A DNA stretch of 64,000 bases, from contig CM114271.1 in NCBI GenBank assembly GCA_050084515.1, positions 43,586,001 through 43,650,000 of the forward strand, in the 5' to 3' direction. This DNA comes from Blasia pusilla. Taxonomy: Eukaryota. The notes under the pieces are model-generated. The model was given only the letters and a program-made list of their open reading frames with translations. It was not told the origin of the DNA and did not search any database. Within the stretch, counting starts at the first letter, position 1, and every line of letters begins with the position of its first letter. The position numbers and the translations under genes were made by a program. Of the stretch, positions 1,635 through 64,000 are shown in pieces.

Positions 1635-1640
1635 CCATCC

Positions 1641-1678
1641 GATTTTATCAAAGTTAGGAAATAAACTTTGATAAAATC
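1641..1678. repeat. Perfect 15-bp inverted repeat (hairpin)
   Basis: gattttatcaaagtt (1641-1655), 8-nt loop, aactttgataaaatc (1664-1678). Confidence 0.9.
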
Positions 1679-8400: not shown

Positions 8401-8450
8401 ATTCGTAATGTCGCGTAATGGTTGTCGTGTTGCATCCTCCATAATGCGCT
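2422..8450 (-). mobile_element. Helitron 1: decayed autonomous-type element with a multi-exon Rep/PIF1-helicase (RepHel) gene; 5' terminus not located
   Basis: Zn-finger-like CSSCNAMHWKCE...CCEHG; VILPSSFSRGPSHM; Rep HUH-like VEFQKRGLPYVHVL; Y2 KYFYKYVYKG; helicase motifs DGPGGTGKT, IIWDGAPM, GLPPHRLILKLGAPIMLLRN, MTINKSQGQ, VFSHGQLYVALSRV. GT-AG introns, many stops and frameshifts. 3' end on the minus strand: ccggtgcatcgcacgacaccgg hairpin, then CTAG|T at 2425-2422. Confidence 0.93.
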
Positions 8451-8903
8451 TAAATGGTTGAACAATCCTGCATAATGTACAATGTCAATTTACTTTGAAG
8501 AATTAAATAAATGGACGGTTTGTAATTGAAATGAAATTTTTTTGTGCAAATTATTTGTATGAAAAAATTAAAATAAACCCATGGACGGAGAATATAAATC
8601 GTATGGAGCTCCATAGCCCATGAACGGAGCATGTGAATTGGATGGAGGGTCCTAGGTAGGTTGGAGTGAGGGAGGCGATGGACGAAAGCCATAGAGGAGC
8701 GGCTAGGATAATAGAGGCGCTAAAGCCGAAACCTAGGGAGCGGCTAGACAAAGGAGGCGTGATGTAGTGCAATGGCTATGGCAGAGAGGCGGAAGGAACC
8801 CTAAGTTTGACGCGACCTAAGAAGGCCGAATGAGGAGAGAAAGGTTGGGTGGCGGCTCTACAGGTTGCAGCAAGGAGCTCGATAGGTAGTGAGAGCCCAT
8901 GAT

Positions 8904-9033
<130 letters not shown>

Positions 9034-9395
9034 TAGAGTAGAGTAGATTTTTAGTCCCATGATTTCTTCCACATATGTGAAATTGACATCGCATCCGACA
9101 TGGCACCTTCACATCTAGATTTGGGGTTCTCACTCATGAGATTTGGTTTTTGTTTTTTTTTTTTTTTTTTGTGAAGGCCTGGAATTTTATCCAGATTTTT
9201 AACCTGGGAGCATAGTCAAGGCACACGAAAGGCACACAAAGCGTTCTCTCTCTCGAACATGGACCATCCATGCCCTAGGTAGGGGACGCCACGCTACAGG
9301 GTTGAGACGACCCCAGCCCAAGGGGAGAGTTGAACCCAAGACCTCTTCAAGAGGACCTTATGTTTGTTCGGCTAACCTCTTGGTCATCTCTACCG

Positions 9396-9398
<3 letters not shown>

Positions 9399-9473
<75 letters not shown>
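9399..9473. repeat. (GA)n microsatellite
   Basis: About 75 bp of GA dinucleotide repeat. Confidence 0.98.
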
Positions 9474-9474
<1 letters not shown>

Positions 9475-41600: not shown

Positions 41601-44600
41601 ATGCATGAATCTCAAGAGGAACCATCGAGGCGAGATGAAAAAAGACCATTCGCAGACATCACCAATGTAGTCTCCTTACCTAATGTGGAGAATGATCACC
41701 ACTTTTCATGTAGTGCTCCATCTTCTATACGGATTTCGGAGGAAACAGAGAAGCTTGCATATAAGAAGGTTAGAAGGGTTGCTTCTCAAAGAAACAGAAG
41801 GGCGCTTCATGATATGCGATTCGTAACTCATTCAACGGCTTTGTCATCTCCAATGTAAGGATACTTAGCATTATGATTATAGAATGATATCGTAACCATA
41901 TGTGCACACTCTAGATTTGTTGTGTGACTTTAATATCTTTCATGTTTGTGATGTAGACTTCCAAATCCATTGAACCCGAAACGATTACGTGATATACATC
42001 AAATTGTGAGAGCTCAAGGACAAAAGCGAAGACATGCTAAATTAGTTGAATTGAGATCTATTGAAGCTGTTGTGAATGTTCCATTGATGGAAGAATTACA
42101 ACCAACCATCATCGATGGCCCACCAGACGCAAATATTAGAAGGTATTTATTTATGTATAACATTTCTACTTTTTATTATAATAATATTTATAATTTATTT
42201 TCGTATTATGACTTTTTTTATTCTTTGTTCAGGTTGGTAGCAACACCTTCCAATCGAAATCTTCATGCTTTAATAGACTCTACATCGTCTCCAATGTACG
42301 TTTCATCCACTCATTAATTTCTTTCTTTTTATTGGTTTTTTTTAATTTAATTATTCTGACTTGATTTTTTTTAATATTGTTTTTCTTAGTCTTCCACTTC
42401 CGTCCAACCCTCGGGGATTACATGCTATGCTTCAAGTTGCACGAACACAAGGCCAGAGAAGAAGGCACCATAATTTGGCCCAAGCGAATGTTCATCAATT
42501 GTCTGTGAATGTTCTTCCTAGAGAGGAAGTTGAGGCTATGACTAATAATGACTTTCATACTCAAGCTAATACAAGGTATGCTTTACATACTTCTATTATC
42601 GATGCTTCTTATTTGGTCTTAAATTTTTATGAATGATCTCTAATAAAAAAAATTTTGCAAGCCAATTATGGTACGTCATGAAGTTGAAGCTATTCCAAAC
42701 TCTGGGAGTATGGTCTTTCCATATCCAATGTATATTTCTAAACTATATATTCAAATTTAATAGATATATGTTTATATGTATATTTATTCTTATTATAATT
42801 ATATATATTAATTTCTTAACCTCCGCTTGCAGTCTTCCAATTCCTACCAATCCTCTACGATTATCTCACATGCTTCAAGTTGCTCGAGTTGAGGGCCAAA
42901 GAAGAAGACATGCTCATTTGGATGAACTACATGAGATTGCACATGTTGGCGATTCGTTGATAAGGAATGATGCCAATGGACCTAATCGTGAAGGCCACAT
43001 GGAAGTGAATGAAGACAATGTATCTGCCTGGATTCCAAATGTGGGATCACATTTGGATGAAGTACATGAGATTGCACATGTTTGTGATCCGTTGTTTAGG
43101 AGCGATGCCAATACAGCCAATCGTGAAGGCGACATGGAAGAAAATGAAGACAATGCACATGCCTCGATTCCAAATGTGGGATCTAGAAGGGTTGTGAACT
43201 TGAAAAAGTTGCTCAATATTGCACGTATTCCTAACTTTGAAGAGAAGCACATTCGAATTCTAAGGTTGGGAGATCGTATTGATAGTATGACTGGTCGTTT
43301 TAGTGTTGGACTTATGAATGTTGTTTGTCCGACTTGCAATGCTCTACATTGGAAGTGTGAGAGAGTGAAGTATACTAGGTTTATAAGCTCGCCTTTTAGT
43401 ATGTGTTGTGGGCATGGTAAGATTCAATTACCATATTTGACAGCTTCACCTTCTATACTAGCAGAATTACTTTCTGGTATGACTGCAAATAGTCTTCATT
43501 TTTTGCGTAATGCACGTGCCTATAATAGTGCTCTTCAATTGGCATCTACTGGGGCACATGTGACAGAGCAACGAGGCGGTACAGGAAACTTCAGGATTCA
43601 AGGTGGTGTGTATCATTCTATTGGACCTCTACATGCTGAAAGTGGTGCTCCTCCACAATTTGCGCAAATTTATATTCATGATGATGAGCATCAGATGGAA
43701 CATAGAAGAAGGATTATGACTGGAGATTATCGGGATCAATTGAGGCCAGAGATCTTAAGGGGATTACAAGATATGTTACATGCCCATAATCCATATGTGG
43801 CTTTATTTCGAAATGTGGCTATTGATCCATGTAATTCTGACTTTCATATTGTTCTTAAGGGTAGTAAGCGAGGTCTTGATGCAAAACGATACACCTTGCC
43901 TGTTGCTTCAGAGATTGCAGCTATCTTGCCTGGAGATGGGAGTGAGCCAGTAGAAGGACGTGATATTATTGTTCGCTTACATGGAGGAGGGATTCGTCAT
44001 CTGTCATTAGACTTGAATGAAGCATATATCCCATTGCACTTTGTTTTGCCTTTTGTTTATGGTGAAGCAGGTTGGCATCCTGGGATACCTTTGCAAGGGC
44101 AACATGATCATAGAGATGATCCTCCGTTAAGAGGGTATGCTATGATGGATGAAGATAGAGATGATATTGTACAAGGTGAAATTCAAGGTGAGGTTACCAC
44201 TCATGAGGCGAGTTCAAAGACGATCACTGCTTTATAATTTGCTTCATTCAGAATTCAAATGCGAGCTAACGGTATGGATAATAATCGGTTGTTGAGGTTT
44301 GGTCGTCTTACTCAAGAATATATGGTGGATATATATGCGACTATCGAAATGCAACGACTAACTTGGATACGATTGCATCAAAAAGAGTTGAGAGCTGATT
44401 TACACCAAGGGGTCAGAGATGCCATGACTTGGCATGATGTGAACGGTCAAGGCATAGGGAGACGTATTATCTTACCTTCGTCTTTCATAGGAGGACCTCG
44501 TCACATGCATCAATTGTACCATGATGCTATGGCCATTGTGAGACATTTTGGGAAGCCTGACTACTTTTTGACAATGACTTGCAATCCTAAATGGCCAGAG

Positions 44601-47600
44601 ATTACCTCTGCTCTACTGCATGGTCAATCAACGTCCAATCGTCCTGACCTGGTTGTACCTGTTTTCCAACAAAAGAAGAAGGAGTTGTTGAGACTTATAT
44701 TGGATAAGCATATTTTGGGTCGAGTGGTGGGATGCATTCATGTGGTCGAGTTCCAAAAGAGAAGACTTCCACATGTGCATATCCTAATTATTGTTGCTTC
44801 TGAGGATAAGCCAAGGACAACCTCTGATTATGACGATATTATATCAGATGAGATTCCAAATCCCATGACTCATCCTAGGCTACATTCTACTGTAAGAAAT
44901 TGTATGATTCATGGTCCGTGTGGAGTAGCACATCCAACTGCACCTTGCACGGATAAAACGACAAAAAAATGTTCCAAAGGATACCCAATGCCGTTTGCAA
45001 CAATGAAAATTGAGAATGAGGATGGATATCCTATTTATAAGAGGTAATTCATTGGTTTTGTTGTTTATTTTGTCATTTGATGTTCTTCTATTAGTGTGGT
45101 ATCTTTTTTCCCCAACTATTAACATACTTCTATATGTGTTTATGCAGGCGAGATAATGGCAAATTGATAAATAAGTCCAATCATGACTTTGATAATCGTT
45201 GGGTGGTTCCATACAATCCAATGATATGTACTTTATTTGATTGTCATATAAATTTGGAGATAACAAATAGCATCTTGGCAGTAAAGTACTTTTATAAGTA
45301 TGTGTACAAAGGATCTGATGCCATATCATATACCTTGGCAAATACTACATCAGGAGAGGATACTATTGATGAGACATTATTATTGATGAGACATCTTGAT
45401 GCAAGGTATTTTGATCCTTTCTATCTTTCAAGATCTTGCAATTTTTCCTAGAATATATTGCGGGAGTCTAACAATATTTATATTGTATGGTATGAAGGTA
45501 TGTTTCTTCTTCACAAGCATGTTGGCGAACCTTCAAGTTTAGTCTACATGCAGAGCAACCAAGTATTGTGAGATTGATTGTTCATCTTCCAGACAGTCAA
45601 ATGGTATATTTTCATGGGCAAGATTCATTGGGTAATATTTTGGAGCGAAGTAAGGAAACCACTCTTACTCAATGGTTTGCAACCAATGTTTATGATTCGA
45701 CTGCGCGACAATATCTTTATTTGGAGTTCCCTTCTCATTACTCTTGGAATAAGAAGCAATGGCATCCGCGTAAACGTGCGCGAAAAGGATGTGGACATCC
45801 CATTGGACGTCTGTATATGACAAATCAGGTAAACTTTTGATACTTTGTTAAGATACAATTTTTAAGGAAAAAATTGAATATCTGAGAGTCTTCATGCTTC
45901 CTTCCTAATTTTTTTTTTTTTTGCTAATCCTAGCTGAAGGGGAGCGTCATTGGTTACGATTACTTCTCCATCATGTGAGAGGAGCTCAATCATATCAAGA
46001 TTTGAGAACCATCGATGGTGTAGTTTATCCTACCTTCAAAGAGACCGCTATTCAGATGGGACTTTTGGAGGACGATAGAGAGATCTTTTCTTGCTTTGAA
46101 GAGGCGGTTGTCATTCGTACTGGCTATTCATTACGTCTACTCTTTGCCATTTGTCTTCTATATAATACACCTTTCCTTCCGGCTATGGTGTGGGAATATT
46201 TTTTGGTTCCACTGATAGAAGATCTTCTACATCAAAGGCGTGAGGTAATAGGCATGGCTTTTGTTGAGTCAATTTTTTTCTTATTTCTCTTACGAATATT
46301 TTAGGTACTTTATTTATGTTTTAACTTCTATATTTGTTGCTTGTAATAGAGAATTGGTATTCCGACCCTTCCATTGGATGTTCATATTATTAATCTTGCG
46401 TTATTGGAGGTCCATTACCATCTTCAAGATCATGGTAAAAGTATGGCGGACTTCCCCGACATGCCTCAACCAAATTTCCAAGCTCGTGATTTATCTATTT
46501 CGCGTCTAGAAGAAGAAGAGCTCTCCTACGATCATGATATTCTTTGTGAACGTGTGAGAGCAGGAGAGATGTCTTTAAATGATGGACAACGCGCGATTTG
46601 GGAAGTTATTTGTAATGATTTTCGCGATATCTTACCCTTCTGTAAGTGGATATTATATATAGTATATTTTATTATTAATTTCTTACAATTTTTATTTATT
46701 TATGTTTTCTTTTAAAGTGCTTTTCTGTAACCAAAAATATGGATTTTTCAAGCAAAACTTTTTTTTATCGATGGTCCTGGCGGAACAGGAAAAACATTTT
46801 TGTACAACCTTCTTCTTGCAATGGTACGGAGCGAGGGTCATATAGCTCTTGCAGTTGCATCTTCGGGGATTGCCGCTTTATTATTGGATGGAGATCGTAC
46901 TTCTCATTCTCGATTCAAGATTCCTATCCAAGTACATGAAAGTTCCACTTGCAAGTAAGTCTAGATTTAAGATTTTTTTTCCTTTTATGGCATGCATATT
47001 ATTGTTTTATTTTTTGATTATCCTTCATAAATGTTCCTCAGATATTGTTTTGTTATTGATTTTCCAGCCTATCGGTCAATAGTCATATGGCCCGTCTTAT
47101 ACAAAAGGCGAAGTTGATTGTGTGGGATGAAGCTCCTATGACCCATCGTCACGCATTTGAGGCTGTTAATCGTACTTTCCAAGATATCATGGGTTTGATG
47201 GATCCTCGATTACGAGATTTTCCTTTTGGGGGAAAAATCATTTTATTTGGTGGTAACTTTCGACAACTTCTTCCAGTTGTTCGTCGTGGAGATCGTGCCA
47301 CAGTTGTGCGTGCAACATTTAAGAGATCTCCTATTTGGTTTAACGTGAGATTATTGAAACTCACTACCAACATGAGAGTCAATACGGTACAAGGTATTAA
47401 AGAATAAACCTAAGATTTCACCTATTTCATTTCATGTGGTTTTTGTTTATTTTTAATATTTACTAATTTCTTCATCTTATATTTATTATCAGGATATGCA
47501 CGAGAAGAGCAAGAAGCCTTTGCAAAGTGGTTATTAGAGGTAGGAGAGGGTTGTGTACCGCTACATTTGGACCTTGGAGAGGATTTTATACAAGTTCCGG

Positions 47601-48443
47601 ATGTGATAATTGTTAAAACCACAAGGATCAATGATTTCATTGATATTTTTTATGGACACGATATTCATAAGTGGAGTGATATTGATATCTTGAGGGGTAC
47701 ATCCATTTTGTTAACCAAGAATACTACTGTGGATATTATAAACGGAGAAATCATGTCTCGATTTCCAAGAGAGGTAATATTCATATTCTTGAATATCATT
47801 ATTCTATTTTGATTGTTCTACTGCTATATTTTTCTATGATCTCTCTTATTATTAATGATTTATTTTGTTTTTGCAGGAGCATATTTTCTTGAGTGCTGAT
47901 TCTGTTTCCGACGATGAGATGAGATTTGTTTATCCAACAGAATTTTTGAATACATGTTTACCATCTGGATTGCCACCTCATTGTTTGACTTTGAAGATTG
48001 GAGCTCCGATAATGCTATTACGGAATATGAATGGAGCAAAGGGACAAGCAAACGGGACTCGGCTGGTGATAGCTGGATTTAGTCGACATCTTATAGATGC
48101 AACAATTATCACGGGAAAAAAAATTGGAGCTCGAGTTTTCATTCCACGCATTCCACGCATTCCATTGATTGCTTTTGATTCCGGCCTACCTTTTGATTTA
48201 CGACGATTTCAATTTCCTATCCGTCCTGCTTTTGCAATGACTATTAATAAGTCTCAAGGTCAAACATTAGATAGAGTTGGTATTTATCTGCCCAATCCCG
48301 TATTTTCTCATGGGCAATTGTATGTTGCCTTGGCAAGAGTAGGCTCGAGGAATTCTATTCATATTATGATAGATAATGAAAATGCTACTAACAAAAAAAA
48401 AATTTATACTAGGAATATTGTATATAATGAAGTGATAAATTAA
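41601..48443 (+). pseudogene. Helitron RepHel gene (Zn finger + HUH Rep + PIF1 helicase), multi-intron, with frameshifts and stops; N-terminal exons may extend to ~40140
   Basis: CPTCNALHWKCE...CCGHG, FRIQGGVYHSIG, FAQIYIHD, IILPSSFIGGPRHM, FLTMTCNPKWPEI, VEFQKRRLPHVHILI, KYFYKYVYKG, DGPGGTGKT (~46770), IVWDEAPM, GNFRQLLPVV, QFPIRPAFAMTINKSQGQTL, VFSHGQLYVALAR. Confidence 0.95.
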
Positions 48444-50321
48444 ATTAAAATAACATTATATATATGAAGTTTTATATTGATAGGCATTTCCTAAATTTTG
48501 TAATACTTCAATTTTTGATATTCACTTACTGGTATGATTAATTTTACATGTGCTAAATTTTGATGCCCGTGCATCGCACGGGCATTCTTAAGAGTGCAGA
48601 TTACAAGTATAGGATGTTCTTGCAAATTATAGCATGTCCTATTGCAAAAAGAAATCTGGAGCCTCATTTATTTCTTTCCATTTCGTGAAAATTACTGTTC
48701 GTGGTCTTGCTCCTGTTCATAAGTCTTGCCTTCCACGTGGATTCATGCAGCGTCTCACGACCACATGTTGATCTAGCCGGCCTGGAGGTCTCGATGCGTT
48801 TCGTAACAATCATAGGAGGGAAGCTACATAGACGTTCGTATGGATCATGACTCCAGTTCCTCCTGTTCGGAGACAGCCATTTCATGGAGTTCCAGGAAAG
48901 CTGCGAGCGTTTCAAGTGCAAATCATGTCCCGCAGAGGCATGTGTCTCCTGCCGCGACCGATTGCTGGCTACCTGACGTCCAGCAGTAATTATGAGATCT
49001 ACATTAGGCGGTGCGTCGGACTACTAGGTGTTCTACCTGTCATCGCCACACAGGGGAAATGCAGCGAACACTTCAGAGATGGATCGGGGGAAACATGTCA
49101 TGGGGCAGATCAATCTCGAGCGCTACGCTACGTGCAAAGTAGCTATTGGGGGGGGGCAGTAGAGAATCCTCGCTCGAAGGTCTTCTTCTACCGTGGCGAG
49201 CCAGATACCGCCTAAAGGAACGTGGTCGTTTAACGTAATCGGTTACGTTAAATTGTTGATCACGGACGGACGGAATCGATAACGTCTATCTCTATATTTT
49301 TTAACACCTCAACTTCTGACATGTGTCACCTCATACCCAAACTTTCGCCACGTGTTCTCCGAGGACACGTTTCTTATTCTTCTCGATAGAGCCTGCTAGC
49401 ATTGGCTTCGAGGAAGGAGTCGTTTTGGATGCAATACTTGAGCGGATTCTCCTGTCATAAATTTGAATTGAGTCGGTTAGAGATTCAAGGAGATGGCGGA
49501 AGGGGTTCTTGATTTCAGTGAGTTTCTACAAGCGCTCCGTGATCGTCTTCAGCGAAACATTGATTGAGGCTACTTTCTCAACATCCTTTGCTGTGATAAG
49601 CTTTGTACATGTGCATCCTATGCTTCTGCCTTTAACCTCTAATGTTAACCATCTAATCTTTCCATGAAGGGTAGGAGAACGTGGAAAGGAGCGGTTGACT
49701 CTCTTGTCGTTTACCAACATCTCCTTCGTATGGTATCTCCAACTCTATAGCTCCTTCGTTTGCTCTCAAAAGCATCACTATGACGCTATTAGCTCCTTCA
49801 TTTGCCCCAAAAGTTGCACTCCAACCGGGGAACTTTTGAATGCTCCACACTTTGTCGCTCCATCGTCTCCTCCCTCCCAACCAGACGAGTGATACTATCA
49901 ATCTTCACTTTTGTTATAGACATACTTGACAAACGGTCATGGCAACTAGAAGAACAAGGATTTCTATGTTGTTGCTATCTATAGATTTTATAGACTTCTG
50001 TACTATATACAAATAAGATTTATTCATGTATTCTCTAACGTCATCGTGTTGTTGTTGGAGAGGACACGAAAGATTACTATGCATTCGACTCTATTGCTGT
50101 CGAGAGAATCATTGACCCTCTTGTTCACGCAATTATTAGGGGGTGGTCAGAACTTTTGGATTAATCCATTGGATGAGTGAAGTACAGATACTTCAAGTCA
50201 ACAAAATCTGTTGGTAGTAACTCTTAACAAGAGTCACAGCCAACCAAACACAACACCCCACAACCAAACACAACACAGTTTTGGAGGGGATTCATGTATT
50301 TTGGAGTGTTGGAGGAGTTAT

Positions 50322-50584
50322 CAAAGTTGGACTTATGCACCTTCCAAGTGATTTCGCTATAGTGCTAATGGTATTGAATACCCCTTCGAGGCCCAACACC
50401 CTCCATCACCGAACATTGTGGAGTGTTTAAGATGAACATGTGATTCCACCAACAAAGTTGGACTTATGCACCTTCCAAGTGATTTCTCTATAGTGCTAAT
50501 GGTATTGAATATCCCTTCGAGGCCAAACACCCTCCATCACCGAACATTGTGGAGTGTTTAAGATGAACATGTGATTCCACCAAC
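50322..50584. repeat. 131-bp tandem duplication
   Basis: caaagttggacttatgcacc...gtgattccaccaac present twice with few mismatches. Confidence 0.92.
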
Positions 50585-53500
50585 GGGACAATAGAGAGAG
50601 CCATGAACCCTTCAACAATCCCCGTCAATTTTTACTAGAATGTCTGATTTAAAATATTTTTTGACGTTGTTGTAGATCGTGAAGCTGTGCACGTTGTGCA
50701 ACAAATATTGCGCAATTTGGAGTTGCGAGCAAAAATTTATGGTCAATCTTGCAAAACTGCCATTGCTTGGCGATTTTTAGGGTTAAATTGTTCAAACCCT
50801 AAACCAACCGCCACCGTTATCGTCACCGTCAACGGTCCGACGTCAAAGGTCAACCATCACTATCAATGGTCAACCGTCACCATCACCATCACCGGTTGAC
50901 TGTCACCGTCAACGGTCCACCGTCCATTGTCCACCCTTTAGTTGCCATTGCCGCCATTACGGAGTAGAGGGTCTTCCACAACGTTGGTTGATTCTCTGAC
51001 TTGCATCGCCACCACGTATTTTCTTTTGGCCGCCATCGTCATCGTAGTGTCGTCCTCAACCAGTGATGGCAGATGACTTCCGGTTATGGTGTTTGAGTTT
51101 TGATTTCATGCTGCTATGTTGTGATTGGTAGCCGCTCGACGACGATCGAGTATTGTGCCGTGACGCCTGTAGCGGCAACGTGTCGCCGATTGCTGCGCAG
51201 TGCCGCTCGTGGCCACACCGCACTGTCTCGATCCCGGAACCGCTCCTTCACTAAGGAGCAGAGTGTGTGAATTTCTGATTGAGGAGGGTATGTCGCCGAA
51301 TGCCGCACCCCATTCTCGAGTGTTGTGTTGTTTGTAGCCGTTCCGTGCCCCCAGTGCCGCACCAGACCGCTCGACTTGCACCGCACATCGAGGAGGTTGA
51401 GCAACGTCAGTACGAGAGGAGTACGACTTGCTGATTGGAGGAGTTGTCTTCACGATCGAGTTGGGATCGAGATTTGCAGTTGCTGAGGAGCGACATCGAC
51501 ATGTGTTCAGGTTACCCATTCTAGTCCTTTATCCTGCACATGTGAGGGATTCTAGGATTTGGGTAGTTTATTTGGGGATATTGGGTTGTATGGATGCAGA
51601 GAGCATCATTCATGTATGTGGTTTAGGGGACATAGACCTATGTGGGATGTCCAGAGTTGAGGGTAGGTTGTCGATGAGATGATAGCCTGGTCGATTTGCC
51701 GCACCATGCCGTGTGTTGCCACACATTACACGACGTCCGTTCGGGATCATCACGGCGTCCGTTCGGGACTTTGAGAGGCGAGATGGTGAACCTGAGAGTA
51801 GCTTTAGAGGTTTTACGCGGAGTGGCGCGAGGTTCCCAGGGTCTCCACGTGAGGAACCACCTCGACCTCCTTCTGTGTCATCGTCAGACAAGGGGGAGGG
51901 TGTAGAGAAGTTTGTGAGCACATCGCCACACATTGTGAGTGGTCCTATTAGTTTTGCGTAAGAGATGGACGATTAGGGTAGAGGATCGCGTAGGTTTTCA
52001 GGTGCAGTAGGCACGATTGAGTTGCACGATTTCAAAACAGAGTTCAGGAGTTGGTGCGACTCCCAACGGGCCAGGAACTCTAGAGAGTTCAACCCGTTTA
52101 CAGCATGGAACGGTATATTCGAGCATTTAGAGGGGACGCCCATGGACGATTACCATGAGTTCTCCCACAGATATGCCCAGGAGATTGAGGCATGGCGACT
52201 CAACTATGACCCACACTATGTGTCATAGACGGAGTCGTTCCTAGATGAGGAGGAGAAGTCAGGAGAGGCTACTTCCTCTTCCACTAGTGATGTTTTAGGA
52301 GGGGTCACTCGCACTAAAGCAGTTGCACCATCTAGTCGGGTTCGTCCCAGGCTCAACCTCGTGGTTGAGTTCTTCGCTGAGTTGAGGGCCAGCTACCAAG
52401 GGGTGCGGATGGAGAAGTTGCGGAGCATCCACGACTTCCAGAGGCGCCCGGGTGAGAGTTTACATGAGGTTTAAACTCGATTGCGTCAGTTGACCAACGT
52501 CACTCAGGGGGTGACGGAGGCTCACGCTATCTATTCATGGTACGCAATGCTCAACCTGACCCTACGGACACGGGTGCGGGAGGGGATGCTTCTTATGAAC
52601 ACCTCCCCTACGTTGAGAGATGTTTTTAGGACCGCCAAGAACATTGAGCGCAACATGGTGGAGGAGAGCGTAGCCACCATGGGTTCTGGGTGAGAGCAGT
52701 CAAGATTGGCCTCACCACCTATGCAGCAATGTGGACTTCGAGATAGGTTAATTGTGGCACCATGAGCTCAGGGTGGATACCGGGAGGCCGTGCCACAAAG
52801 ACCTGCGCCTTCATATGCAGCTTAGCAGCAGCCGCCTATGATTACTTGTTGGTCATATGGTGGAACCCATCATCAGCGCGATTGCACTCGTCAAGGTTAT
52901 GGACGTGTGCCTCAGCATGGAGGAGGAGATGGTGTTGCAGCAGGAGGTTATCAGTGTGACTATTGTCAGAGGTATGGTCATACACACGCTAGGTGTTTCA
53001 GTTTACATCTTGAGTTACGTCCGGACCGAGGGCCAGAGAGTGCATCAGAGCGAGTAGCCGGTCCGGGTGGGCCTAGAAATCATGCATCATGTGGTCCCGT
53101 TGGGGGACAAGGAGCTGGATTTGCCCTACAGGGTGGTGGAGCTGCTCGTGGAGGAGGTAGAGTACCACCACCTAGACGCGTCAAGGGAGACGTCGAACGT
53201 GAGGCTGGGATGGTTGCTCAGATACAACAACTACAGGAGCAGATTTCCGTTATGGCATTGAGGTTACCCAATGCCGGATCCGTGGCATCGACATCATATG
53301 GAGCAGCCAGAGATATGGAGGATCTTGGTTGGATGTGCGGGGTTGCCCAGATGGAGGCCGCCATAGTTGTGACGCGTGGAGTAGTCGCAGAGTTGGATCC
53401 ACAGCGAGGGGAAGTCAAAAAAATAGACTAGGCTTCCTCAGTCTTTCACGTTGTCCGAAGCGATGAGGACCCCATCGATGGTTCCTTATCAAAGTTTGTG

Positions 53501-54599
53501 AAGAGTTGGTGATGTTGTTAGTGTGCAGGCAGAGAGGGCGATGGGAGAAGTGAGTGTGACGACTCCTATTGTTGATGCTCAAGAGGGGCATGTGTCGAGC
53601 ACGTTGTTGTGGGCGGCCACCGTTGTGTACCGCACTCCTTTATTTTCTGCTTCCGGCATCACGTTCAGAGGTGATTGCAGAGGAGGTGATGGACCTGCCC
53701 TTGGAGCAGATGCTCGGGCCGTCCATGTCAAATTCATGGCAGGTTGCGGCTACTAGGATGGCGGAGATGCCCGCTAGACCCGTGATAGAGCGTGCCATGG
53801 CTTCTCTTTGTGTTGTATTGCTGGATAGCCGAGGAGAGATCTTCCAGTTTGTGAGTCCCGGAGGTAGAGCTTTTAGTTCGCAGTGTGTCTTGTTGGATTC
53901 AGGAGCGCAACCCCAAATATTGGGGAAAGCGTCATTCAGAGTATTAGGCTTGACGAGAGTCGATGTGGAGCCTTGTCCTTTCCGGATACAGACATCCTTG
54001 GGTGGAGCGAGTACCACAGAGTATATCACCCAACAGGAGGTTGTGGTGAGAATTCGCTCCAGACATCCTACAGATGAGTCCGTGGTGCGAACCAAGGCCA
54101 TAGTGACTGATGCTGAGTCCTACGACGTCTTGGTTGGTGGAGCAGTGTTATACCCGATGGGGTTTTCCCTGGATTACTGGGAGGAGTCAGCGTCCTACAG
54201 ACCAAGATGGCAATCAGGCGATGGGCGCATTAGCTCATTAGCTCATTCGATTCAGAGGTGCAGTGGTCGAGCGACGGCTTGGAGAGGTGGCGACCTTAGC
54301 AGCATTTAGCAGTGCCATCACTTGGCCTAGTGATTTGATTGAGGGATATGTCCATGCAGAGGATACTCCCGTTCCTGACATTTCTATGGAGAGGAGTGTT
54401 AGTTGCATCATTATGTGGAGGAGAGGTGCCGTTGTGGGGCTTGACTGAGGAGCTTCGACGATTGGCAGATGAGCACGTGCAGACCGCGGGGAGCAAGCCG
54501 TTTGAATCGAAGCGTGACGGGTCTGAGGACCCCGAGGTAGGAGGGAGTGCTATGGTGACACCCTTGGATACCACATTGATTATGTGGTGTACCCGGGAG

Positions 54600-55560
54600 G
54601 AGGGTATTCGAGTGTTAGATCTCTTTGGAGGGATGAGCACCGGATTACCTGGTATTTTGCAGGCAAGAGAGCGAGTACAACAGTACCTGTATGTGGAGAG
54701 TGATGATGTTGCGAGGCGCGTCTCACTATGACATGTGGCGCAGTTACGCCTATATTTTCCCAACTTATTGTCTGCATCCGCGGTACAGGGGTACTATGGT
54801 TCCCTATCGAGGGATATTTCGTTGTTGGGGGGCAGGACTTAGAGCGGTAGGGACCATTGATTTGGTCATTTCCGGTTGGCCATGTCGGGAGCCAATTGAG
54901 TCTTTGAGGCAAGCGGGTTGGGTGACACTCGGTCCAGGTTATTTTGGGAGATGTTGAGGATCTTACGGCAGTTGCAGGAGCACCAGTCTCGTTCTCCAGC
55001 CTACATTCTGGAGAATGTGCCGATCTTAAGAGACTCCAGGTCACGGGGGGTGACGAGTGCTCATCAGGTGCGTGCTTGGATCGGCCCAGCTGTGTTCTTG
55101 GATGCGGCGAGTGTAGGTTCTAGAGCCCATCGCTCGCGTCTATGGTGGACCAACTTGGTGCCCCATGCGGTGTTACGGAGGGCGTATGCGAGAGTGGAGC
55201 GCCCCTCCCATTTGTTAGTGAATTCCATTCTTGATCTAGGTCGTCGCTTATAGGCAGTGAGGCAAGATGATCGACCACCGTTGATTGTGGTTAACACGGT
55301 AGGGAGGCCGCGGGCAGCCTTTCCCACGTATGTGAGTTTTCCCGCTTCCTATGCATACAAGGAGGCCGGTCCTAGATTGGTTTGGGATGACCAGGTTCAG
55401 AGGTTGGTGGAGCCCAACGCCGACAAGAGAGAGCGGGCAATGGGATTTCCCACAGGATTGACGGCAGTACCGTCAGTATCAGAGGCCTCACGACACCATG
55501 TCTTGGGTCATGCAATGGATCTGAATTGTTTGACATGGATCTCCAGCTTGGGAGTGGCTG
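54600..55560 (+). pseudogene. C5 cytosine-specific DNA methyltransferase domain embedded in the retrotransposon pol region
   Basis: Motif I IRVLDLFGG (~54606-54632), motif II YVESD, motif IV IDLVISGWPC (PC at 54880-54885), GLGDTRSRLF, motif VI YILENV (55011), motif VIII AHRSRLWWTN (~55125-55155), motif IX ERAMGFP (~55430), motif X LGHAMD (~55503); disrupted by stops at 54729 and 55251 and by frameshifts. Confidence 0.9.
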
Positions 55561-58397
55561 AGCAACGTTGTATGAGATGGCGACAGATCACAGCGGTTGC
55601 GTTGGTGAACCCCATGCGTACCAAGACGGTGGAGGCAGTGGCAAGTGGCGAGACCTGAGGAGATCTACACACCAGGGCAGATCAGGAGAGACACCCTTGG
55701 ACTTCTTGGGATGTTTTGCAGGTACGTCAGGAGATGATAGCCACAGCATCGAGTGTGGTTCCGGGCACTACACGTGGAGGAGATCGGAGTTTGCACTTGG
55801 CTACAGGAGAGCGGCCAAGTGTTATTGTTCGAGACGGGGTTGCACCATACCAACCACCGATATCCGTGCCCGAGAGTCCTACTGTAGTCACAATGGTGAC
55901 TTGGGAGCCAGATATGGGCCCTAAGTTGACAGGAGGAGAACGGCGCCGAATACATCAATTCCTTGGGAGTTATAGGAGCTGCTTTGCGTTTAGCATGGAG
56001 GATTTGGGTACGTTGAAGGGACCGGGGCTTCGCATTGAGTTGTCAAGTGATATGCCGATCTTCCGACGACCCTACAGGTACAGTGATATGGAGAGGGCTA
56101 TGATTCAGAGTAGGAGCCAGGACTTGGTCAGAGCAGGACTACTGGAGATGTCGCATGGGGAGTATGTATCTGCCATTGTCATGTCTGCTAAGAAGGATGT
56201 GCATGGCAAATGGACAGATAGGCGGATGTGTGGGGATTACCGACCTATCAATCGGCAGACAAAGTCCGATAGGTATGCCATACCCACCCGTGAGGAGATC
56301 TTTGATACGATTGGTCATGCAAAGGTCTTCAGTTCATTGGATTTGCGAGCCGGATACCATTAGCTGCCTATCAGATTGGTGGACATGCAGAAGACGGCAT
56401 TTTGGGGCATCGATCCTCACGAGAAGGATTGTTTGTACTAGTGGCATTTGGGTTAAAGAACGCCCCGGTTGAGTTTGAGAGGGTCATGGATAGAATCTTG
56501 GCTCGTTTGGATTTTGCTAGGTGTTATATTGATCATATCGTAGTCTTTAGCGCCACGGTTGAGGAGTATGAGCGACATCTGGAGGAGGTATTTTGAGTAC
56601 TTGGGTCATACAATATACCTAGGGGGCCTTGGTGTTTAGCACACGAAGGTAGAAGCTATCTCTCGCATTGCACGCCCTACAGAGTGCTTGGCTACAGTGT
56701 GGGCAATCGCGCATTTCAAGTGTTACTTATTCGGCAACTCTTTTACCATCATCATTGATCATCAACCACTAAAGTGGTTGATGGGGTCCGACAAGCTTAC
56801 AGGGAAGCTTGCGAGATGGGCTCTGTTGTTGCAGGAGTATGATTTTCAGGTGGTAGATAGACCTGGGACGCTCAACCAAGATGCACATGGGTTGAGTTGT
56901 AACCCATGCCCGAGTCAGCGAGATGCGATTGGAGCTCGGTGGCATGGAGAGATTAATGAGGAGTCAGTGTCAAGATGGCACGCGTCAGCCTATTTAGGCA
57001 TGTTGGCTATGGAGAGCCAGAGTGTGGAGACTTCGATGGCGAGGTCTAGTGGAGAGTCCTTGGATCCCGAGGCCAATGAGGAGACGAAAAGTGGCCGAGA
57101 TATTCATGATGATGGAGTAGTCTTGGAGTACCTTCGATCGGGCACGTTGCGAGCACCGTGGGTGCTAGAGAGCGGGATCGGATCCTACAGAGGGCCAGAC
57201 GGTTCCGTTGGGAGGGGACACATGTTTTGAGGGTTTGGGAGGATGGGAGAGTATGCATAGTGCCGCATCCTTTGCAGAGAGCACGAATAGTACAGCATGC
57301 CCACGAGGAGTTGGGTCACTTTAGGGTGAAGCACACGTACAGCTTTCTCCAGATTTAGTATTGATGGCGAGGCATGCAGACTGATGTTCAGCAGTTTGTT
57401 GCCACGCACATGGTATGTGATCGGGTTTGAGCATCGTTCAATGCTTCGACTCCACAATTGCATCCATTACCTATCATGGGCTTAGGGTATAGATGGAGTT
57501 TGGGTTTTGCATGACCTTTGCCTTTAACGGAGCGTCACAGTCGTTATGTGTTGGTGATGATCGAACACTTCTCGAAGTGGATCGAGTTGGTTGCATTGCC
57601 TGACAAAGCGAGTGAGGGAGTAGCTTATGCCTTCCTTGACAGAGTGCAAAGTCATTATGGCGCACCAGCTGAGGTGTTGACAGACCAGGGTACCGAGTTT
57701 CGCGATGAGTTCTAAGCCTTGTGTGATCAAGCGCTGATCGACCATCGCACGACTTGGCGAGATCATCCAGAGGCGGATGGATTAGCGGAGAGAGTTGTGC
57801 AGATGGTGAAGAGGGGTTTACACAAGAACGGCTTGTTGAGAGGTCACCTAGGAGATTGGGACCTCCAGTTTCCATGGTTGGCAATGGGATACAAGTAGCA
57901 AGTAGGCATCCTTAGCGTCTTTTTCACCATACTTGCTACTTTATGGCCGAGAGCCAGATTTACCAACGGCCATTCGTTGAGATGCTGGTGAGGTGCTGCA
58001 CCTTGATGACACAGATGTATGGATGCGAGCATGTTCTCACAGGGCTTAGTTGTTTTGGAGAGTGATGCCCATGGCGTTTGAGAACTTGGCGATTGCGCAA
58101 CATCGGGATACGTTGATGTATGCAACTATTCGAGGTGGTGGTTATCGACCAACTATCTTAAGGTTTCATCAAGGAGATTATGTCTACTTACAGGAGATGA
58201 CACCAACAACGCTGTATGTGACTGCAGGACGCACTATCCTGAGAGTACGTGACGTTTTGCCATCCGGTGTTCTCTTGCTGGAGGGACGCGATGGTATGGT
58301 ATGGAAGGACCATGTGCGTAATTGTGCGCCATGTCACCTTCTTAACATTGATGGTACAATAGATCCGAGCTCAAGAGTGGTTCTTGCAGGCTTGCGT

Positions 58398-58533
58398 TGT
58401 ATGTTGTGTGGTTCTGCTCGTGATGCGGCCACAATACTAGTCTATGATGGATGTTCGAGAGATTGGCATATGGCGTGTCTGACGGCACCTCGGACACATC
58501 CATCGTCTCGGACGATGGATGTGTCCCAGATGT
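58398..58533 (+). other. PHD finger at the integrase C-terminus (frameshifted)
   Basis: CMLC...LVYDGC...WHMACL then, after a frameshift, GRWMCPRC: a Cys4-His-Cys3 pattern with one Cys replaced by Tyr. Confidence 0.82.
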
Positions 58534-58855
58534 ACATAGAGGAGGTAGTAGGTAGGTTTCAATTCTGACTTTTTGTGTGACATGGATGACAGGAAGTCCA
58601 CTAACGATGGGGCCATATGAGCACCCGGCCTTTCTACTCTTAGCGTGCTAGAGATGTATGTCGTGGTAGGTAGGAATAGATGGCTATCTAGAGTTAGAGG
58701 GACCTAACCACCACCTACGGGGGCGATTGGAGATATTTTGGTACTTCTCGCCTCTGTTTATGGATGTCATGAGTTAGCATGGGATCGTGTGTGTTTGTGT
58801 GTGTGTTCGATGACAACGATGTATGTTGTGTAGCGATGTGTATGCGCACGACAGC

Positions 58856-59491
58856 TGTCACGATTGTTAGGATAGATCGGTGGGATCTAGCAGAGCGTCC
58901 GCACAAGTAGTGGAGGACATGCCTAAGAGGTTGAGGATGACCTGTTGAGGCCCCGGAAAACCTGAGAGAGCAAGTATCCCTTTCGTTTCGGCTCATTTGG
59001 AGCCATATTGAGAAACTTACTATTTTAGATAAGTAACATTTTGAGTATATGATTGACTTTCTATTTTTGGTAAGTGGCCCTTGACCTCCTACATCAGGTC
59101 AAGAGCCAAGGAGGTGACTTGGGAGCATAGGTTACCATGGAGAGAGCTTGGGATAGGGGAGGGGTATACCTCAATGAGCTTGAGAGCTCATTCTCTCTTT
59201 GTTGAACCTCTTGGCATGAGGCGGCGGAGCTATGGTCCCTTGCCTTGTGAGTGTAACCCAAGCCTCTCATTAGGAGAGTGGGTTTGGTTTGACATGAGTG
59301 AGAGTGCACACCTTTGAGAGCTATGGTGTGAGATGGTATAGAGAGAGATTAGATCTCACTTTTATTGGAGATATTTTGGTACGTCTCGCCTCTATGTATG
59401 GATGCCATGAGTTAGCATGGGATGGTGTGTGTTTGTGTGTGTGTTTGATGACAGCGATGTATATCATGTAGGGATGTGTATGCGCACGACA
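58856..59491 (+). repeat. LTR copy (~636 bp, TG...CA) with a partial LTR 3' end just upstream (58725-58853) and another partial copy downstream (~59530-59870)
   Basis: Starts tgtcacg and ends tgcgcacgaca. The 3' block attggagatattttggtac...atgagttagcatggga...tgcgcacga recurs at ~58727, ~59365 and ~59744. Confidence 0.75.
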
Positions 59492-61509
59492 AGATGAACT
59501 ACAAGCATACGTTATCGTGGCGATGGCTTGGGAGATGGAAGGGGGTATACCTCAAAGAGAGAGAGCTTGAGAGCTCATTCTCTCTTTGTTGAACCTCTTG
59601 GCATGAGGCGGTGGAGCTATGGTCCTCTTTGCTTTGTGTGTGTAACCCAAGCCTCTCATTAGGAGAGTGGGTTTGGTTTGACATGAGAGAGAGAGAGAGA
59701 GTGCACATCATGGAGAGTTTGGTGTGAGAGATTTGATCGATTTATTGGAGATATTTTGGTACTTCTCATCTCGTTGTTTGGATGCCATGAGTTAGCATGG
59801 GATCGTGCATTTTTATGTGTATGCTCGGTGATAGCCATGTTTGTTGTGTTGCGATGAGTATGTGCACGAAAAAGCACTAACTATTACGCAAGGGGGCTTC
59901 AATAGATTAGAGGAAAAAAACTCATAAATGCCCTCAACTCTCAAGGCGGCTTGAGCTTCTATTGTGAAGTCAAAATTACATATGAAAAAGTTACATCAAC
60001 GAAATATTTTATGACCTATCTAACTCATAAAACTTATGTGGAGGCTTTGGTAGTTGTTTTTACTTACTAACATCTACATAGTGAGTACATGCTACAGGGA
60101 TCTAATAAAAAAAAACAAGACAAAATGAACAAAAAGACATGTACATATAGATAACAAGACTATCACAAAATGAGCCTCCAGCCTCTTACTCAAGGCTCTA
60201 AATCTATCACTAATCATGGATATGTCCGCGGAGTCATGTCCATCCTATGGATGGACATGTCTGTACGGGCCCAAGCACCCGCGGCCCGCACTCGAGCTTG
60301 CCGCGTAGATCGGGCTTGATGGAGCTTGCATACGTTGCGTGGCCCACAACGAGGCCTGTAGGGCGGGCTTAGGCTCGTGCAGGGTCCCAAGCTCGCACTA
60401 CCCAAGTCTACGCGAAAGGCTCGGCTGCAGCGAGAGCGCTGGCGCTTGGGTGTGGGCCAGGCATGTCCTTCCCATGGGCGGACTTGTCCGTTTCCATGCA
60501 ACCTTGTGCACATTCATGTCTCCTCCTCTACAAGTGCTCAAATGAAATGGGGAAATAAAAAAATAGGTTTGAATAGGGATAAGTGGAAAATGCTCAAGGT
60601 TGCCAATCAAAGAGGGCAAGAACAAGAAACGAGCAAATCACAAGCACAAAATTGAATCTATACACAATCAACAACATGGTAGACAAGGAGCACGATAGGT
60701 TAATGATCAGATGCAAGAGAAGAGCGAGAGGGAAATATCCGTGAGAGCTTTGTGAGGTGGAGTGTGCAAGTACCGCAATTCTGTGGTGACAATGGCTTCT
60801 ACAAAGCAAGAAGCCGCCGGCTTGGAGTTGACTTGTGCAAGAGGGATAACTCATCGAGTGTGTTGTTGGAATCCGCCAAGTAATGAGTGGGTCTCATGAG
60901 GGCAAATCTCCTACAATGTCAAATATAGATCAAAGGCATAAGAGTTAGAGTAGACTCGCTAGAGGCAGACAACGGTCCCCAGTCTAAATATTAGAGATGG
61001 GCCCAAGGTCTGAGTAGGGTAGAAGGTTGAGGTAGGTTTGGTAATTGGGATTGGGTTTAGGGTGGGAGCTCAAGGTTTCAAGTCTTGGGAATTTTTTTAT
61101 TTCAATATTTTATTTCCACTACTTTTTTCATTTTATAAGGTCATTTATTTCTTTATTATATTTTTCTGATTTTTTAATTTGACTCCAAGGTTTGTAGGGA
61201 TATTTTTATTCCATTTTTCTAGGGTCTTTTTTTCTTTTTTTCATCCAAAATACTTTTTCACAACTCTCCTCTTTTTTGCATTATTTAGATGCCAAGTCGT
61301 GATCACATATTTGTTGACATGGAGAGAAAAGCACTTTATGATATCACTAATGAACCACTTACACTTCATAGTACAAGGAGAAAATTTTCCTTATTAGATT
61401 ACACATCTCACATATAAGAAAAATTATTTTCCTTCATATATATGAGAAGATTTATTTTATGTGTTGAGAAAGTAGTGTTGAATTAGAGAAAGGCATCTTC
61501 TTAAGAAGA

Positions 61510-62158
61510 TATCGTGCGCATACACATCGCTACACAATATACATCGCTGTCACCGAACACATACACAAATACGCACTATCCCATGCTAACTTATGGCATC
61601 CAAACAACGAAACAAGAAGTACCAAAATATCTCCAATAAAAGTAAGATTCAATCTCTCTCTACACCATCTCACACCATAGCTCTCAAAGGTGTGCACTCT
61701 CACTCATGTCAAATCAAACCCATTCTCCTAATGAGAGGCTTGGGTTACATTCACAAGGCAAGGGACCATAGCTCCGCCGCCTTATGCCAAGAGGTTCAAC
61801 AAAACAAAGAAAGAATGAGCTCTCAAGCTCTCTCTCTCTTTGAGGTATATCCCTCCCCTCTCCCAAGCTCTCTCCATGGTAACCCATGCTCCCAAGTCAC
61901 CTCCTTGGCTCTTGATTTGATGTAGGAGGTCAAGGGCCACTTACCAAAAATATAAAGTCGATCACATATTCAAAATGGTACTCATCTAAAATAGTAAGTT
62001 CCTCAATATGGCTCGAAATGAGCCGAAACGAAGGGGAAACCTGCTCTCTCCAGTGTCCCGTGGCCTCAACAGGTCATCCTTGACCTATTGAGCTTGTCCT
62101 CCGTTACTCATGAAGGCGCTCTACTAGATCTCACCGATCTATCGTAAGAGACGTGACA
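61510..62158 (-). repeat. Solo LTR of the same family, inverted, with target-site duplication
   Basis: Reverse complement aligns end to end with 58856-59491; flanked by AAGA (61506-61509 and 62159-62162), or AAGAT if the terminal base was lost. Confidence 0.8.
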
Positions 62159-64000
62159 AAGATCTCTTTAAATTTTGATTTTCTTCATTTCCCCTAAAAT
62201 TTGCACAGATTTCCTACTCCTTTTGATCCTACGGAAATGCTTGATTTTAAATTTTTCTTTCTTGCGGAAGCTTTAAAAACATTGTGCTATTTTAGTGAAG
62301 AAAAAAGCACACCGAACGAAAATAGAACAAGTTTTCTTCATTGGAACATCTCCAATGTAAGTTCATTTGATACTCAACTTTCCATTCAATCAATAGGTCA
62401 AAAGTTTCCTTTCACATTATTTTTTACATATCTTCAATAATTATTTATTTATAAATTTTTCATATTGTTCCAGGCTTATGATCCATCAAATCTTGTAGAT
62501 ATATATTTTTTGGAAGGTTTTGTATGGCGAAGCCCAAAAACAAAAACATGCTAATTGCTCTCATAAGATGGCAGTTCTAAAACCAAAAACTAGACCTACC
62601 AACAAGAGTATAAAAGAAGAAGGAAATCATGGTTGACAATCCAAGTCCATTTATAAGTTATACTTAAATATAAATGTCCCTATTTAGATAACTTTCTTAT
62701 TTTTTTGTTTTTCTAGATCTTTGCTTATGAGGATTCACCATTCATATCGTTGCATTGTCTATTCACATAACTTTTGGATCTTATTTCAAGCCTTTGAGCG
62801 AGGATGCAATTACGGATGTGATAGATCATGGTGTTCATCTTGGAGCTAGGAAAGATGAATTTATTTAAGATGATTCTATACTTTAAGTGAGAGGTTGCCA
62901 CTTATGTATCATCAAGAGTTCAGCAACTTAACATCACATCCTATGAAGTTTTTGGAGAATGCTTTTGCAATTGGGCCAACTACTTATGTACTACATAGAG
63001 TTGAGATATCTACCATTACCCCTACTATTCACGATGATTTCTTCACACATATAGATGAAGTCATTGAGAATGCGTCTATACTTTGTATAACTCAAGATGA
63101 AGTTATCTTAAGAGTTGATCAAATGTCTTCTATAATTCATGGAATTGTGTCACAAATACAAAGTGCCACCATACCATATGCTTCTATAATTTATATTTCG
63201 TCTAATATTAATATAGTTTTAAGAGTAAGAAAATAACTTCCTTGAAAGTGGTGTAGGAAATTTGCAATTACAAAGATTTTGGATCAAATAAGTGGTTCTC
63301 ATATCTTGAAGCCATCTTTTGCATTCTTGAAATCATTGATTTCAGGTGTTGATCCTTGAAGCTTTCATTTTCTTACTCATGTCTTGGCTTATAATTTTAC
63401 ACTTCAACTAGCTTCTACACAATAGAGTGCAAATAAATGAGCAAGTTGGTAGATACAAAGATACACAACCACACCATGGCTAGCTGAATGTGCTCACATT
63501 CTGAAAATCATCAATAGAGAACCGAACATGATTTCCTTCATCAAAAGAAAAGAATTGCCGTTTTTTCAACCAATGTCCGGGTCCAACTAGTGCATTCCAT
63601 GAAAAATTTCATTACTCAGATATGATGAGATTCAATCCTAGAAAGAGAGAATGAACATGGTAAGAGAATACCTCAGAACCCACAAGCAAGATGCAGGGAG
63701 AGTCCCACACAAAACTAAATTCAATTCCTTCAACAGGATTTGAACGAGCAAGATATTCTAGTACAAAACCCTGCCGGAAGTTTCCCATGTGTGTGGGCTC
63801 AATAAAATATCTATTTCATATTCCCCATAGCAGCAGTGCTGTTTGGAACAAGGGCGCAATAACTAACCTTCATATTACAAGTTGCCAAAGCACTTTACTG
63901 TCCAATGATGAAACGGTAGTTGTTTGAAAGGGAGCTCATTGAAGGAAAATTCACAATGATTCAGGATTCGCCAGTATTCCTTATGAAAGAACACAAAATT

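Follow-up and report, generated by a model that had tools for sequence, protein, structure and literature searches.

A dead Ty3/Gypsy-like element with a DNMT3-like cytosine methyltransferase domain inside Pol, and its relatives in bryophytes

The 64,000-nucleotide stretch of Blasia pusilla DNA analysed here (hereafter the window) contains, at positions 51960-58570 on the + strand, a decayed Ty3/Gypsy-like element bearing gag, protease (PR), a C5-methyltransferase (DNMT), reverse transcriptase (RT), RNase H, integrase and a PHD finger. The best explanation overall, to which we assign a probability of about 85%, is that this is a dead, LTR-less copy of a Ty3/Gypsy family whose polyprotein has the order gag(CCHC)-PR-DNMT3-like-RT-RNase H-integrase-PHD. 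Elements of this kind have already been published: de Mendoza et al. (2018, PMC5890265) described Gypsy-Dnmt3 in Klebsormidium nitens, a charophyte alga; the additions made here are the land-plant hosts, the detail of the architecture and the abundance of the family.

Anatomy of the element and of its methyltransferase domain

The stop-to-stop open reading frames of the + strand between 51900 and 58600 contained the full set of retroelement domains, which were located by tblastn with proteins of relatives, by motif search and by Pfam scans of the window's own ORFs. The features of the element, including the motifs of the methyltransferase, are as follows.

51962..53443, + strand: gag region, decayed (tblastn of P0162, P0164 and P0161 from Marchantia and P0174 from Sphagnum, 34-39% identity over about 500 aa)
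52955-52996, + strand: CCHC zinc knuckle within gag (C-x2-C-x4-H-x4-C pattern)
53668..54240, + strand: aspartic protease region, frame 1 (tblastn of P0162, 50.5% identity over 192 aa)
53890-53907, + strand: protease active-site LLDSGA (motif search)
54582..55655, + strand: DNMT3-like C5 cytosine methyltransferase domain (assigned from motifs, Calypogeia and PDB matches, and PF00145 on 54900-55253)
54615-54632, + strand: motif I, LDLFGG, frame 0
54690-54704, + strand: motif II, YVESD, frame 0
54874-54885, + strand: motif IV, GWPC, with the catalytic cysteine; frame 1, unlike the other motifs
55011-55019, + strand: motif VI, ENV, frame 0
55131-55154, + strand: motif VIII, RSRLWWTN, frame 0
55431-55448, + strand: motif IX, ERAMGF, frame 0
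55503-55520, + strand: motif X, LGHAMD, frame 0
55881..56668, + strand: reverse transcriptase, decayed (66% identity over 143 aa to Marchantia P0167; RVT_1)
56682..57149, + strand: RNase H domain (RT_RNaseH, E 7.2e-17; tblastn of P0167 and P0014)
57179..57895, + strand: integrase, zinc-binding part and catalytic core (rve, E 7.5e-10 on 57515-57715)
57894..58568, + strand: integrase C-terminal extension with a PHD finger at its end (PHD, E 0.0013; match to P0029)

The order PR, RT, RNase H, integrase is thus present in Pol, with the methyltransferase between PR and RT. A first-pass annotation, made from the letters of the window, had placed the domain between the protease and the RT on the same strand and had listed the C5-methyltransferase motifs I, II, IV, VI, VIII, IX and X in this order; the positions of LLDSGA and of the RT bear out the former, and all seven motifs were recovered on the + strand within 54615-55520. 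Their order is unpermuted, in agreement with its remark that the domain differs in this respect from plant DRM.

The Pfam scan of the window's own ORF for the protease gave no match, and RVT_1 scored E 1.5e-6 on 56306-56596; the Y-x-D-D box of the RT reads YIDH in the window (56525-56536). In tblastn the integrase matched P0014 with 45% identity over 239 aa and Sphagnum P0174 with 76% identity over 126 aa. The PHD finger of the window reached 19.2 bits (E 0.0013), under the cut-off of 24 bits, and the integrase tail as a whole aligned with the C-terminus of P0029, a protein of the second architecture described below, at 42% identity over 200 aa (E 8.7e-40); P0029 itself contains a PHD finger at E 8.3e-10.

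The window copy is dead and LTR-less. A seed search for direct repeats found no LTRs or terminal repeats flanking the element in the window, and blastn at word size 7 of 48000-52000 against 58400-64000 gave no match; a tRNA scan found none. The homology to the family extends past 51000 and 58700, as judged from read depth. The copy is also heavily rearranged, and an unexplained block of direct and inverted repeats starts at 58726, directly after pol.

Six of the seven methyltransferase motifs lie in the frame of the RT, and motif IV sits in a short segment bounded by two frame changes: the frame shifts at a G-run (54827-54832) and returns to frame 0 between 54886 and 54911. True in-frame stops in the domain are TGA at 54729, TAG at 55251 and TGA at 55656; together with the two frame changes they agree with the earlier description of this copy as dead.

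When raw genomic reads of the source organism were mapped to 51000-58700 at 85% likeness, one-base indels relative to the window were seen in 42-90% of the family reads at four places within 54845-54911, and RNase H and integrase had several such places as well. The frame breaks around motif IV are therefore not common to most copies. In addition, the window had A or T where the reads had G or C at 377 places, the reverse being found at 174. This asymmetry fits C-to-T decay of the window copy, which we infer to be a consequence of methylation.

Type of the methyltransferase

For homology searches, the frame-0 piece 54900-55655, with the stop written as X, was compared with 1.84 billion cluster representatives. 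It matched 904 representatives at E<=1e-3, 457 at <=1e-10 and 66 at <=1e-30, the top match being a Calypogeia fissa protein (E 6.3e-85, 60% identity) and the third a Marchantia polymorpha protein, so that the likeness to methyltransferases is far beyond chance. The Pfam profile PF00145, which the first-pass annotation had proposed as a check, gave a divided answer. In the window, one of the four methyltransferase fragments was matched (54900-55253, E 4.1e-4), with 20.3 bits against a cut-off of 22, and the other three were without a match; the expected hit was therefore not obtained above the cut-off on the decayed copy itself. Intact relatives did give it, 10 of the 14 scanned scoring 25.6-46.1 bits. 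Among the remaining four, P0029 reached 20.1 bits, also below the cut-off of 22, and P0161, P0174 and the ORF of the metagenome locus L001 had no match.

As for the type of enzyme, 25 of the 26 PDB matches of the window piece were DNMT3A, DNMT3B or DNMT3C, at about 20-21% identity. A profile built from 27 family members matched 53 PDB sequences, of which the first 29 were all DNMT3A/B/C (3.9e-24 to 2.1e-17), followed by DRM (1.6e-14 to 5.7e-11), M.HhaI (1.7e-8) and others, and DNMT2 (1.7e-4). An AlphaFold2 model of the relative P0158 (mean pLDDT 82.6, pTM 0.81) had DNMT3A 6w89_A as its top Foldseek match (E 2.3e-18, target TM 0.82), and every row among the Foldseek matches listed was DNMT3A/B/C. 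Judged by this ranking and by the predicted fold, the catalytic domain is of the DNMT3 type, unpermuted and in this unlike DRM; its probable descent from DNMT3 is likewise read from the PDB ranking and the modelled fold, and not from a tree.

The domain resembles host DNMT3A/3B/3C in its best profile and fold matches, in the unpermuted order I-X and in the alignable motif VIII and C-terminal helix regions. It differs from them in the low identity (about 20-21%), in being embedded in a retroelement polyprotein and in its motif X, which is G-x-A-M-D here, unlike the DNMT3 sequence. DNMT3 subfamily proteins have N-terminal PWWP and/or ADD reader domains. Neither PWWP nor ADD was found in Pfam scans of 14 relatives, which had a PHD finger after the integrase instead. 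Plant DRM also has a DNMT3-related catalytic domain and gave the second-best PDB matches, but its motifs are circularly permuted and its match covers only part of the profile.

Conservation was counted over 150 family rows. The catalytic Cys was kept in 146/150, Glu and Asn of motif VI in 149/150 and 145/150, both Arg of motif VIII in 146/150, the Trp and Asn that follow them in 149/150, Gly of motif IX in 146/150 and Asp of motif X in 141/150, whereas Pro of motif IV was found in only 84/150, with Glu in its place in 55/150. That the Cys, ENV and the Arg residues of motif VIII are kept in 145-149 of the 150 rows argues for catalysis on cytosine.

An inherited domain in an abundant bryophyte family

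The methyltransferase has been passed down with the family and did not land in the window copy as an insertion. In tblastn with Marchantia, Calypogeia, Sphagnum and metagenome proteins, gag, PR, DNMT, RT, RNase H and integrase were colinear over 51962-58133, and the identity to Marchantia climbed from gag (39%) through PR (50%) and DNMT (53%) to RT (66%). The first-pass annotation had regarded the domain as an integral, intronless part of pol and had suggested a search of other bryophytes for an uninterrupted PR-DNMT-RT reading frame. Such proteins exist in Marchantia, where P0161 and P0166 have gag-PR-DNMT-RT and P0167 and P0238 have PR-DNMT-RT-RNase H in a single protein; these are gene models, in which a predicted intron could mask a break. 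The 2188-aa metagenome polyprotein P0014 has the same gag-PR-DNMT-RT order, with zf-CCHC present. The window domain aligned to the Marchantia gag-PR-DNMT(-RT) proteins without gaps suggestive of introns, and both views of the domain, as integral and as intronless, are thereby upheld.

An alternative is that a piece of a host DNMT3, or a foreign gene, landed once in the window copy. This could be suspected from the LTR-less, heavily rearranged state of the copy and from the genomic read depth over the DNMT, which was 74% of that over gag/PR and 69% of that over RT-integrase. However, 69-74% of the flanks at a depth of several thousand-fold is still a sustained signal, no joint skipping the DNMT was present among the read joints listed, the domain is in the frame of the RT, and its position is the same in proteins of Marchantia, Calypogeia and Sphagnum as well as in polyproteins from metagenomes. 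The probability of a single landing is negligible; one-off insertion and host pseudogene were both rejected on the grounds of the colinearity in relatives and the sustained read depth.

The inherited domain occurs in two arrangements. Among 101 proteins of >=900 aa with the domain (jackhmmer seeds; a pool drawn from our own searches, with some near-duplicates), it followed gag/PR or preceded RT, as in the window, in 36, lay after RT/RNase H but ahead of the integrase in 62, as a rule with a PHD finger at the end of the protein, and stood alone in 3; in 23 of these 101 long proteins the chain ended right after the DNMT. A scan of metagenome loci (594 pattern matches, 108 tblastn relatives, 80 kept) yielded one close full-length relative, L001. 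Most of the other 79 loci matched a short motif IV stretch only, at E 1e-9 or weaker, and from these scores they were taken to be ordinary Dcm-like genes. L001, the only full DNA locus, is of the second architecture, with a 2027-aa pol ORF and, upstream in the frame of pol, a gag ORF separated from it by one stop; no repeats were found within its 11 kb.

In a FastTree tree of 154 domain rows, the RT-RH-DNMT-INT-PHD kind formed one clade of 87 rows (support 99), and the window fell in a clade of 22 rows (support 100) together with Marchantia, Calypogeia and Sphagnum-like metagenome rows, the named members of which are only Marchantia and Calypogeia. A quick IQ-TREE run on 63 of the 154 rows, picked by hand so as to represent the clades, with two dinoflagellate rows as the root, placed all 27 rows of the second kind in one clade (27/27, support 98) and the window in a clade of 16 rows (support 99). 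From the shared DNMT clade and the matching integrase-PHD tail it follows that the two architectures share backbone and DNMT lineage. The simplest reading of these trees is one acquisition followed by a move within Pol; the root, and with it the direction of the move, is insecure.

All named relatives of the family are bryophytes as judged by sequence matches: Marchantia, Riccia, Calypogeia and Sphagnum. Of 25 proteins at E<=1e-10, 16 were from Marchantia polymorpha, 2 from Calypogeia fissa and 2 from Sphagnum, and 5 were without an organism name. In a wider search, with 120 of 230 matches listed, 24 rows had an organism name and all were bryophytes (15 M. polymorpha, 1 M. paleacea, 1 Riccia sorocarpa, 4 Calypogeia and 3 Sphagnum). 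The land-plant lineage supposed at the outset is thus seen in 20/20 and 24/24 named matches, all of them liverworts or Sphagnum. A metagenome-led cluster includes proteins of Sphagnum jensenii and S. troendelagicum. An alignment search restricted to longer proteins (1456-4155 aa) gave 11 matches, none of them named as plant, and look-ups in the Atlas returned the same Streptophyta-labelled cluster together with phage methylases and were silent on the hosts of the second architecture.

With an identity of only 60-68% even to the best named relatives, one may ask whether the window came from an alga or a contaminant and not from a land plant. We hold this to be very improbable: the family is present at very high depth in genomic Hi-C and RNA runs that share one species label, the window belongs to a clade of support 99-100 whose named members are all bryophytes, and the land-plant claim stands for Marchantia, Riccia, Calypogeia and Sphagnum regardless.

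In the source organism the family is very abundant, taking about 2-3% of the genomic reads. In the mapping to 51000-58700, 365,365 of 12,895,792 reads (2.8%; 1.85% of the bases read) fell on this stretch, with a depth in the thousands, and most of the family reads were only 85-95% like the window copy. In two RNA runs of the same species label, 4572 of 10.13 million and 4285 of 11.97 million reads mapped there, with strand biases of 13:1 and 40:1, the direction of which is that expected of sense RNA if the libraries were stranded in the usual way. RNA depth was about 38-47 over the DNMT and increased toward the 3' end. Only 5+5 of the RNA reads were >=99% like the window copy, indicating that the RNA stems from other copies. 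Three RNA-only joints (56018/56707, 56819/56914 and 58417/58512) were considered as introns and rejected, as they are without GT..AG ends; they were taken as mapping of diverged copies.

Related elements, possible action and significance

Among known systems, the closest is KnitGypsy-Dnmt3 of Klebsormidium. The likeness covers the Gypsy type, an intronless and unpermuted DNMT3-like domain in Pol, conserved key residues and many copies, whereas the hosts here are land plants (liverworts and Sphagnum) and the family is far larger. KnitGypsy-Dnmt3 is described there with Ka/Ks < 0.2 and DIRS-like repeats (PMC5890265), and no terminal repeats were found for the window copy, the two being compared by description only. 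SymbioDIRS-Dnmt3 of dinoflagellates, according to the same paper, also has a Pol with a DNMT3-like domain and two coexisting domain orders, but its backbone is of the DIRS type, with a tyrosine recombinase where the present family has an integrase; the dinoflagellate rows in our DNMT trees (Prorocentrum and Cladocopium) were distant outgroups. A further comparison concerns the tail of the integrase. In chromoviruses, a group of Gypsy elements, a chromodomain follows the integrase; here, too, a chromatin reader is fused to the integrase C-terminus, but it is a PHD finger and not a chromodomain.

The bryophyte family most likely shares its lineage with the Gypsy-Dnmt3 elements of Klebsormidium nitens. 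It may instead have gained its DNMT3-like domain independently, by convergence, which we regard as rather improbable. No Klebsormidium protein was named among the matches listed, and independent capture of DNMT domains is a recurrent pattern according to PMC5890265 and the preprint bioRxiv 10.64898/2026.05.21.726589. The former point is tempered by the nature of the searches, which were limited word-index searches with 120 of 230 matches listed and most rows without an organism name; moreover, the family is very deep (904 representatives), and its two architectures have one DNMT clade and one integrase-PHD tail. A deep family with a shared DNMT clade and tail fits one old acquisition.

The first-pass annotation knew of no description of such an element in land plants, and we found none either, from liverworts, mosses or other land plants, in a literature search that had subscription papers and supplements outside its scope; four Marchantia gene identifiers that were looked up appeared in no paper. 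A 2025 paper (PMC12344493) and the 2026 preprint (10.64898/2026.05.21.726589) speak of 'streptophytes'. Relatives are already present in public databases as hypothetical proteins.

In live copies, the DNMT domain would be produced as part of Pol and would work as a de novo cytosine methyltransferase. In the mechanism that we prefer, it would methylate the element's own new cDNA or its recent insertions, an idea put forward for elements of this sort by de Mendoza et al. (PMC5890265); we hold to it tentatively, at short of even odds. The PHD finger attached to the integrase would recognise histone tails, thereby choosing or marking insertion sites.

The domain may, on the other hand, be conserved without methylating the element's own cDNA, acting in trans on host chromatin (for example, by blunting or mimicking host silencing), methylating RNA or serving as a DNA-binding module only, which we consider somewhat unlikely. 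In yeast, no DNA methylation was seen with the Gypsy-Dnmt3 domain of Klebsormidium, a result that its authors called inconclusive because human DNMT3B failed too, and RNA methylation was raised by the same authors for another class (both from PMC5890265). In the present family, the replacement of Pro by Glu in motif IV (55/150 rows) and the chains that end after the DNMT (23/101), by which the domain may be made with gag-PR and not with the RT, point in the same direction. Against this stand the Cys, ENV and both motif VIII Arg, kept in 145-149/150 rows, and a fold and a profile that are nearest to the DNA enzymes DNMT3A/B/C, not to DNMT2.

The broadest reading is that of a single old Gypsy lineage with a DNMT3-like writer and a PHD reader that has persisted in liverworts and mosses, is transcribed, makes up about 2-3% of at least one land-plant genome and has an enzyme that methylates its own cDNA or host DNA. 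Taken as a whole this is a speculative and distinctly unlikely combination; if it were true, a transposon would write part of the bryophyte methylome, and a genetic model would be at hand for a direct test, since Marchantia polymorpha has many copies.

At the level of annotation, many bryophyte gene models named 'DNA (cytosine-5)-methyltransferase' are transposon genes. The kind of element was previously known from one alga and from dinoflagellates, in which genetics is hard, and is now found in land plants, the model liverwort Marchantia polymorpha among them; the family can be a major, transcribed component of a genome, with two domain orders and an integrase-linked PHD finger. DNA methylation is the main weapon of the host against transposons, so a transposon with a de novo methyltransferase of its own would invert the usual picture. 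The activity and the target of the enzyme, its benefit to the element or to the host, and its share in bryophyte methylomes can now be tested.

RNA joints and the integrase tail

Joints in the RNA reads were observed at three places within the element, the decayed Ty3/Gypsy-like copy of the window (56018-56707, 56819-56914 and 58417-58512, each with at most one DNA read), and GT..AG ends were absent at all three, which probably reflect diverged or deleted copies. At its 3' side the integrase ended in a PHD finger.

Feature of the integrase tail
57894-58568, + strand: C-terminal stretch of the integrase, with a PHD finger at its end (E 1.3e-3, weak)

Whereas the match in the window was weak, the PHD finger was unambiguous in the relatives, with E values of 1e-7 to 4e-11. 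In chromoviruses a chromodomain stands at the integrase end, and it is this place that the PHD finger occupies here.

Repeats and neighboring sequences in the window

A repeat block (58726-62158) began directly after pol, and it may be part of the element, in the manner of DIRS-like repeats, or a separate insertion. A tandem repeat was also present upstream of gag.

Repeats around the element
50322-50583: tandem repeat, 131-nt unit in two copies, 98% identical
58726, 59364 and 59744: direct repeats, 128-nt unit in three copies
58856-59489 and 61512-62158: inverted pair of about 630 nt, 87-91% complementary

Elsewhere in the window we observed two Helitron-like elements in opposite orientations, an open reverse transcriptase (RT) frame that looks like a non-LTR element, and an exon of a host gene.

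Other features of the window
3-1373, - strand: open RT frame of 457 aa, running off the window end (RVT_1, E 3.4e-16)
3060-7830, - strand: Helitron-like element, identified solely from similar peptides in the ORF list
26042-26446, - strand: host gene exon coding for a portion of dihydroorotase (match to PDB 5vgm, E 7.3e-20)
42633-48443, + strand: Helitron-like element (Helitron_like_N, E 4.8e-55; Pif1 helicase 2B domain, E 2.2e-17)

An additional exon of the dihydroorotase gene is likely at the candidate stretch 27774-28133. The GC skew was strong (0.32) over 8001-10000, the stretch holding a long dinucleotide repeat (8776-9108) that was translated as SLSLSL in the ORF list.

A second domain order and a possible further carrier of the methyltransferase

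Among the long metagenome polyproteins, the order RT-RNase H-DNMT-integrase-PHD was the commoner one (62 of 101), and the DNMTs (DNMT3-like C5 cytosine methyltransferase domains) of these polyproteins formed a single clade.

Examples of the second order
Database proteins P0019, P0029, P0033, P0183 and P0187
Metagenome DNA locus L001, 1400-7483

In one of these polyproteins, P0183, a weak, sub-cut-off G-patch match lay between DNMT and integrase (residues 1276-1325). In L001, the gag ORF (2-1399) and the pol ORF (1400-7483) shared an identical frame with one stop between them, the same layout as in read-through retroelements.

In the catalytic Pro-Cys motif, glutamate replaced proline in 55 of the 150 rows of the family alignment. 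The DNMT profile was also matched (E 5.8e-22) by P0190, a database protein of 2112 aa with a Copia-type RT by precomputed PF07727, and this sequence match suggests a Copia element likewise bearing a methyltransferase.
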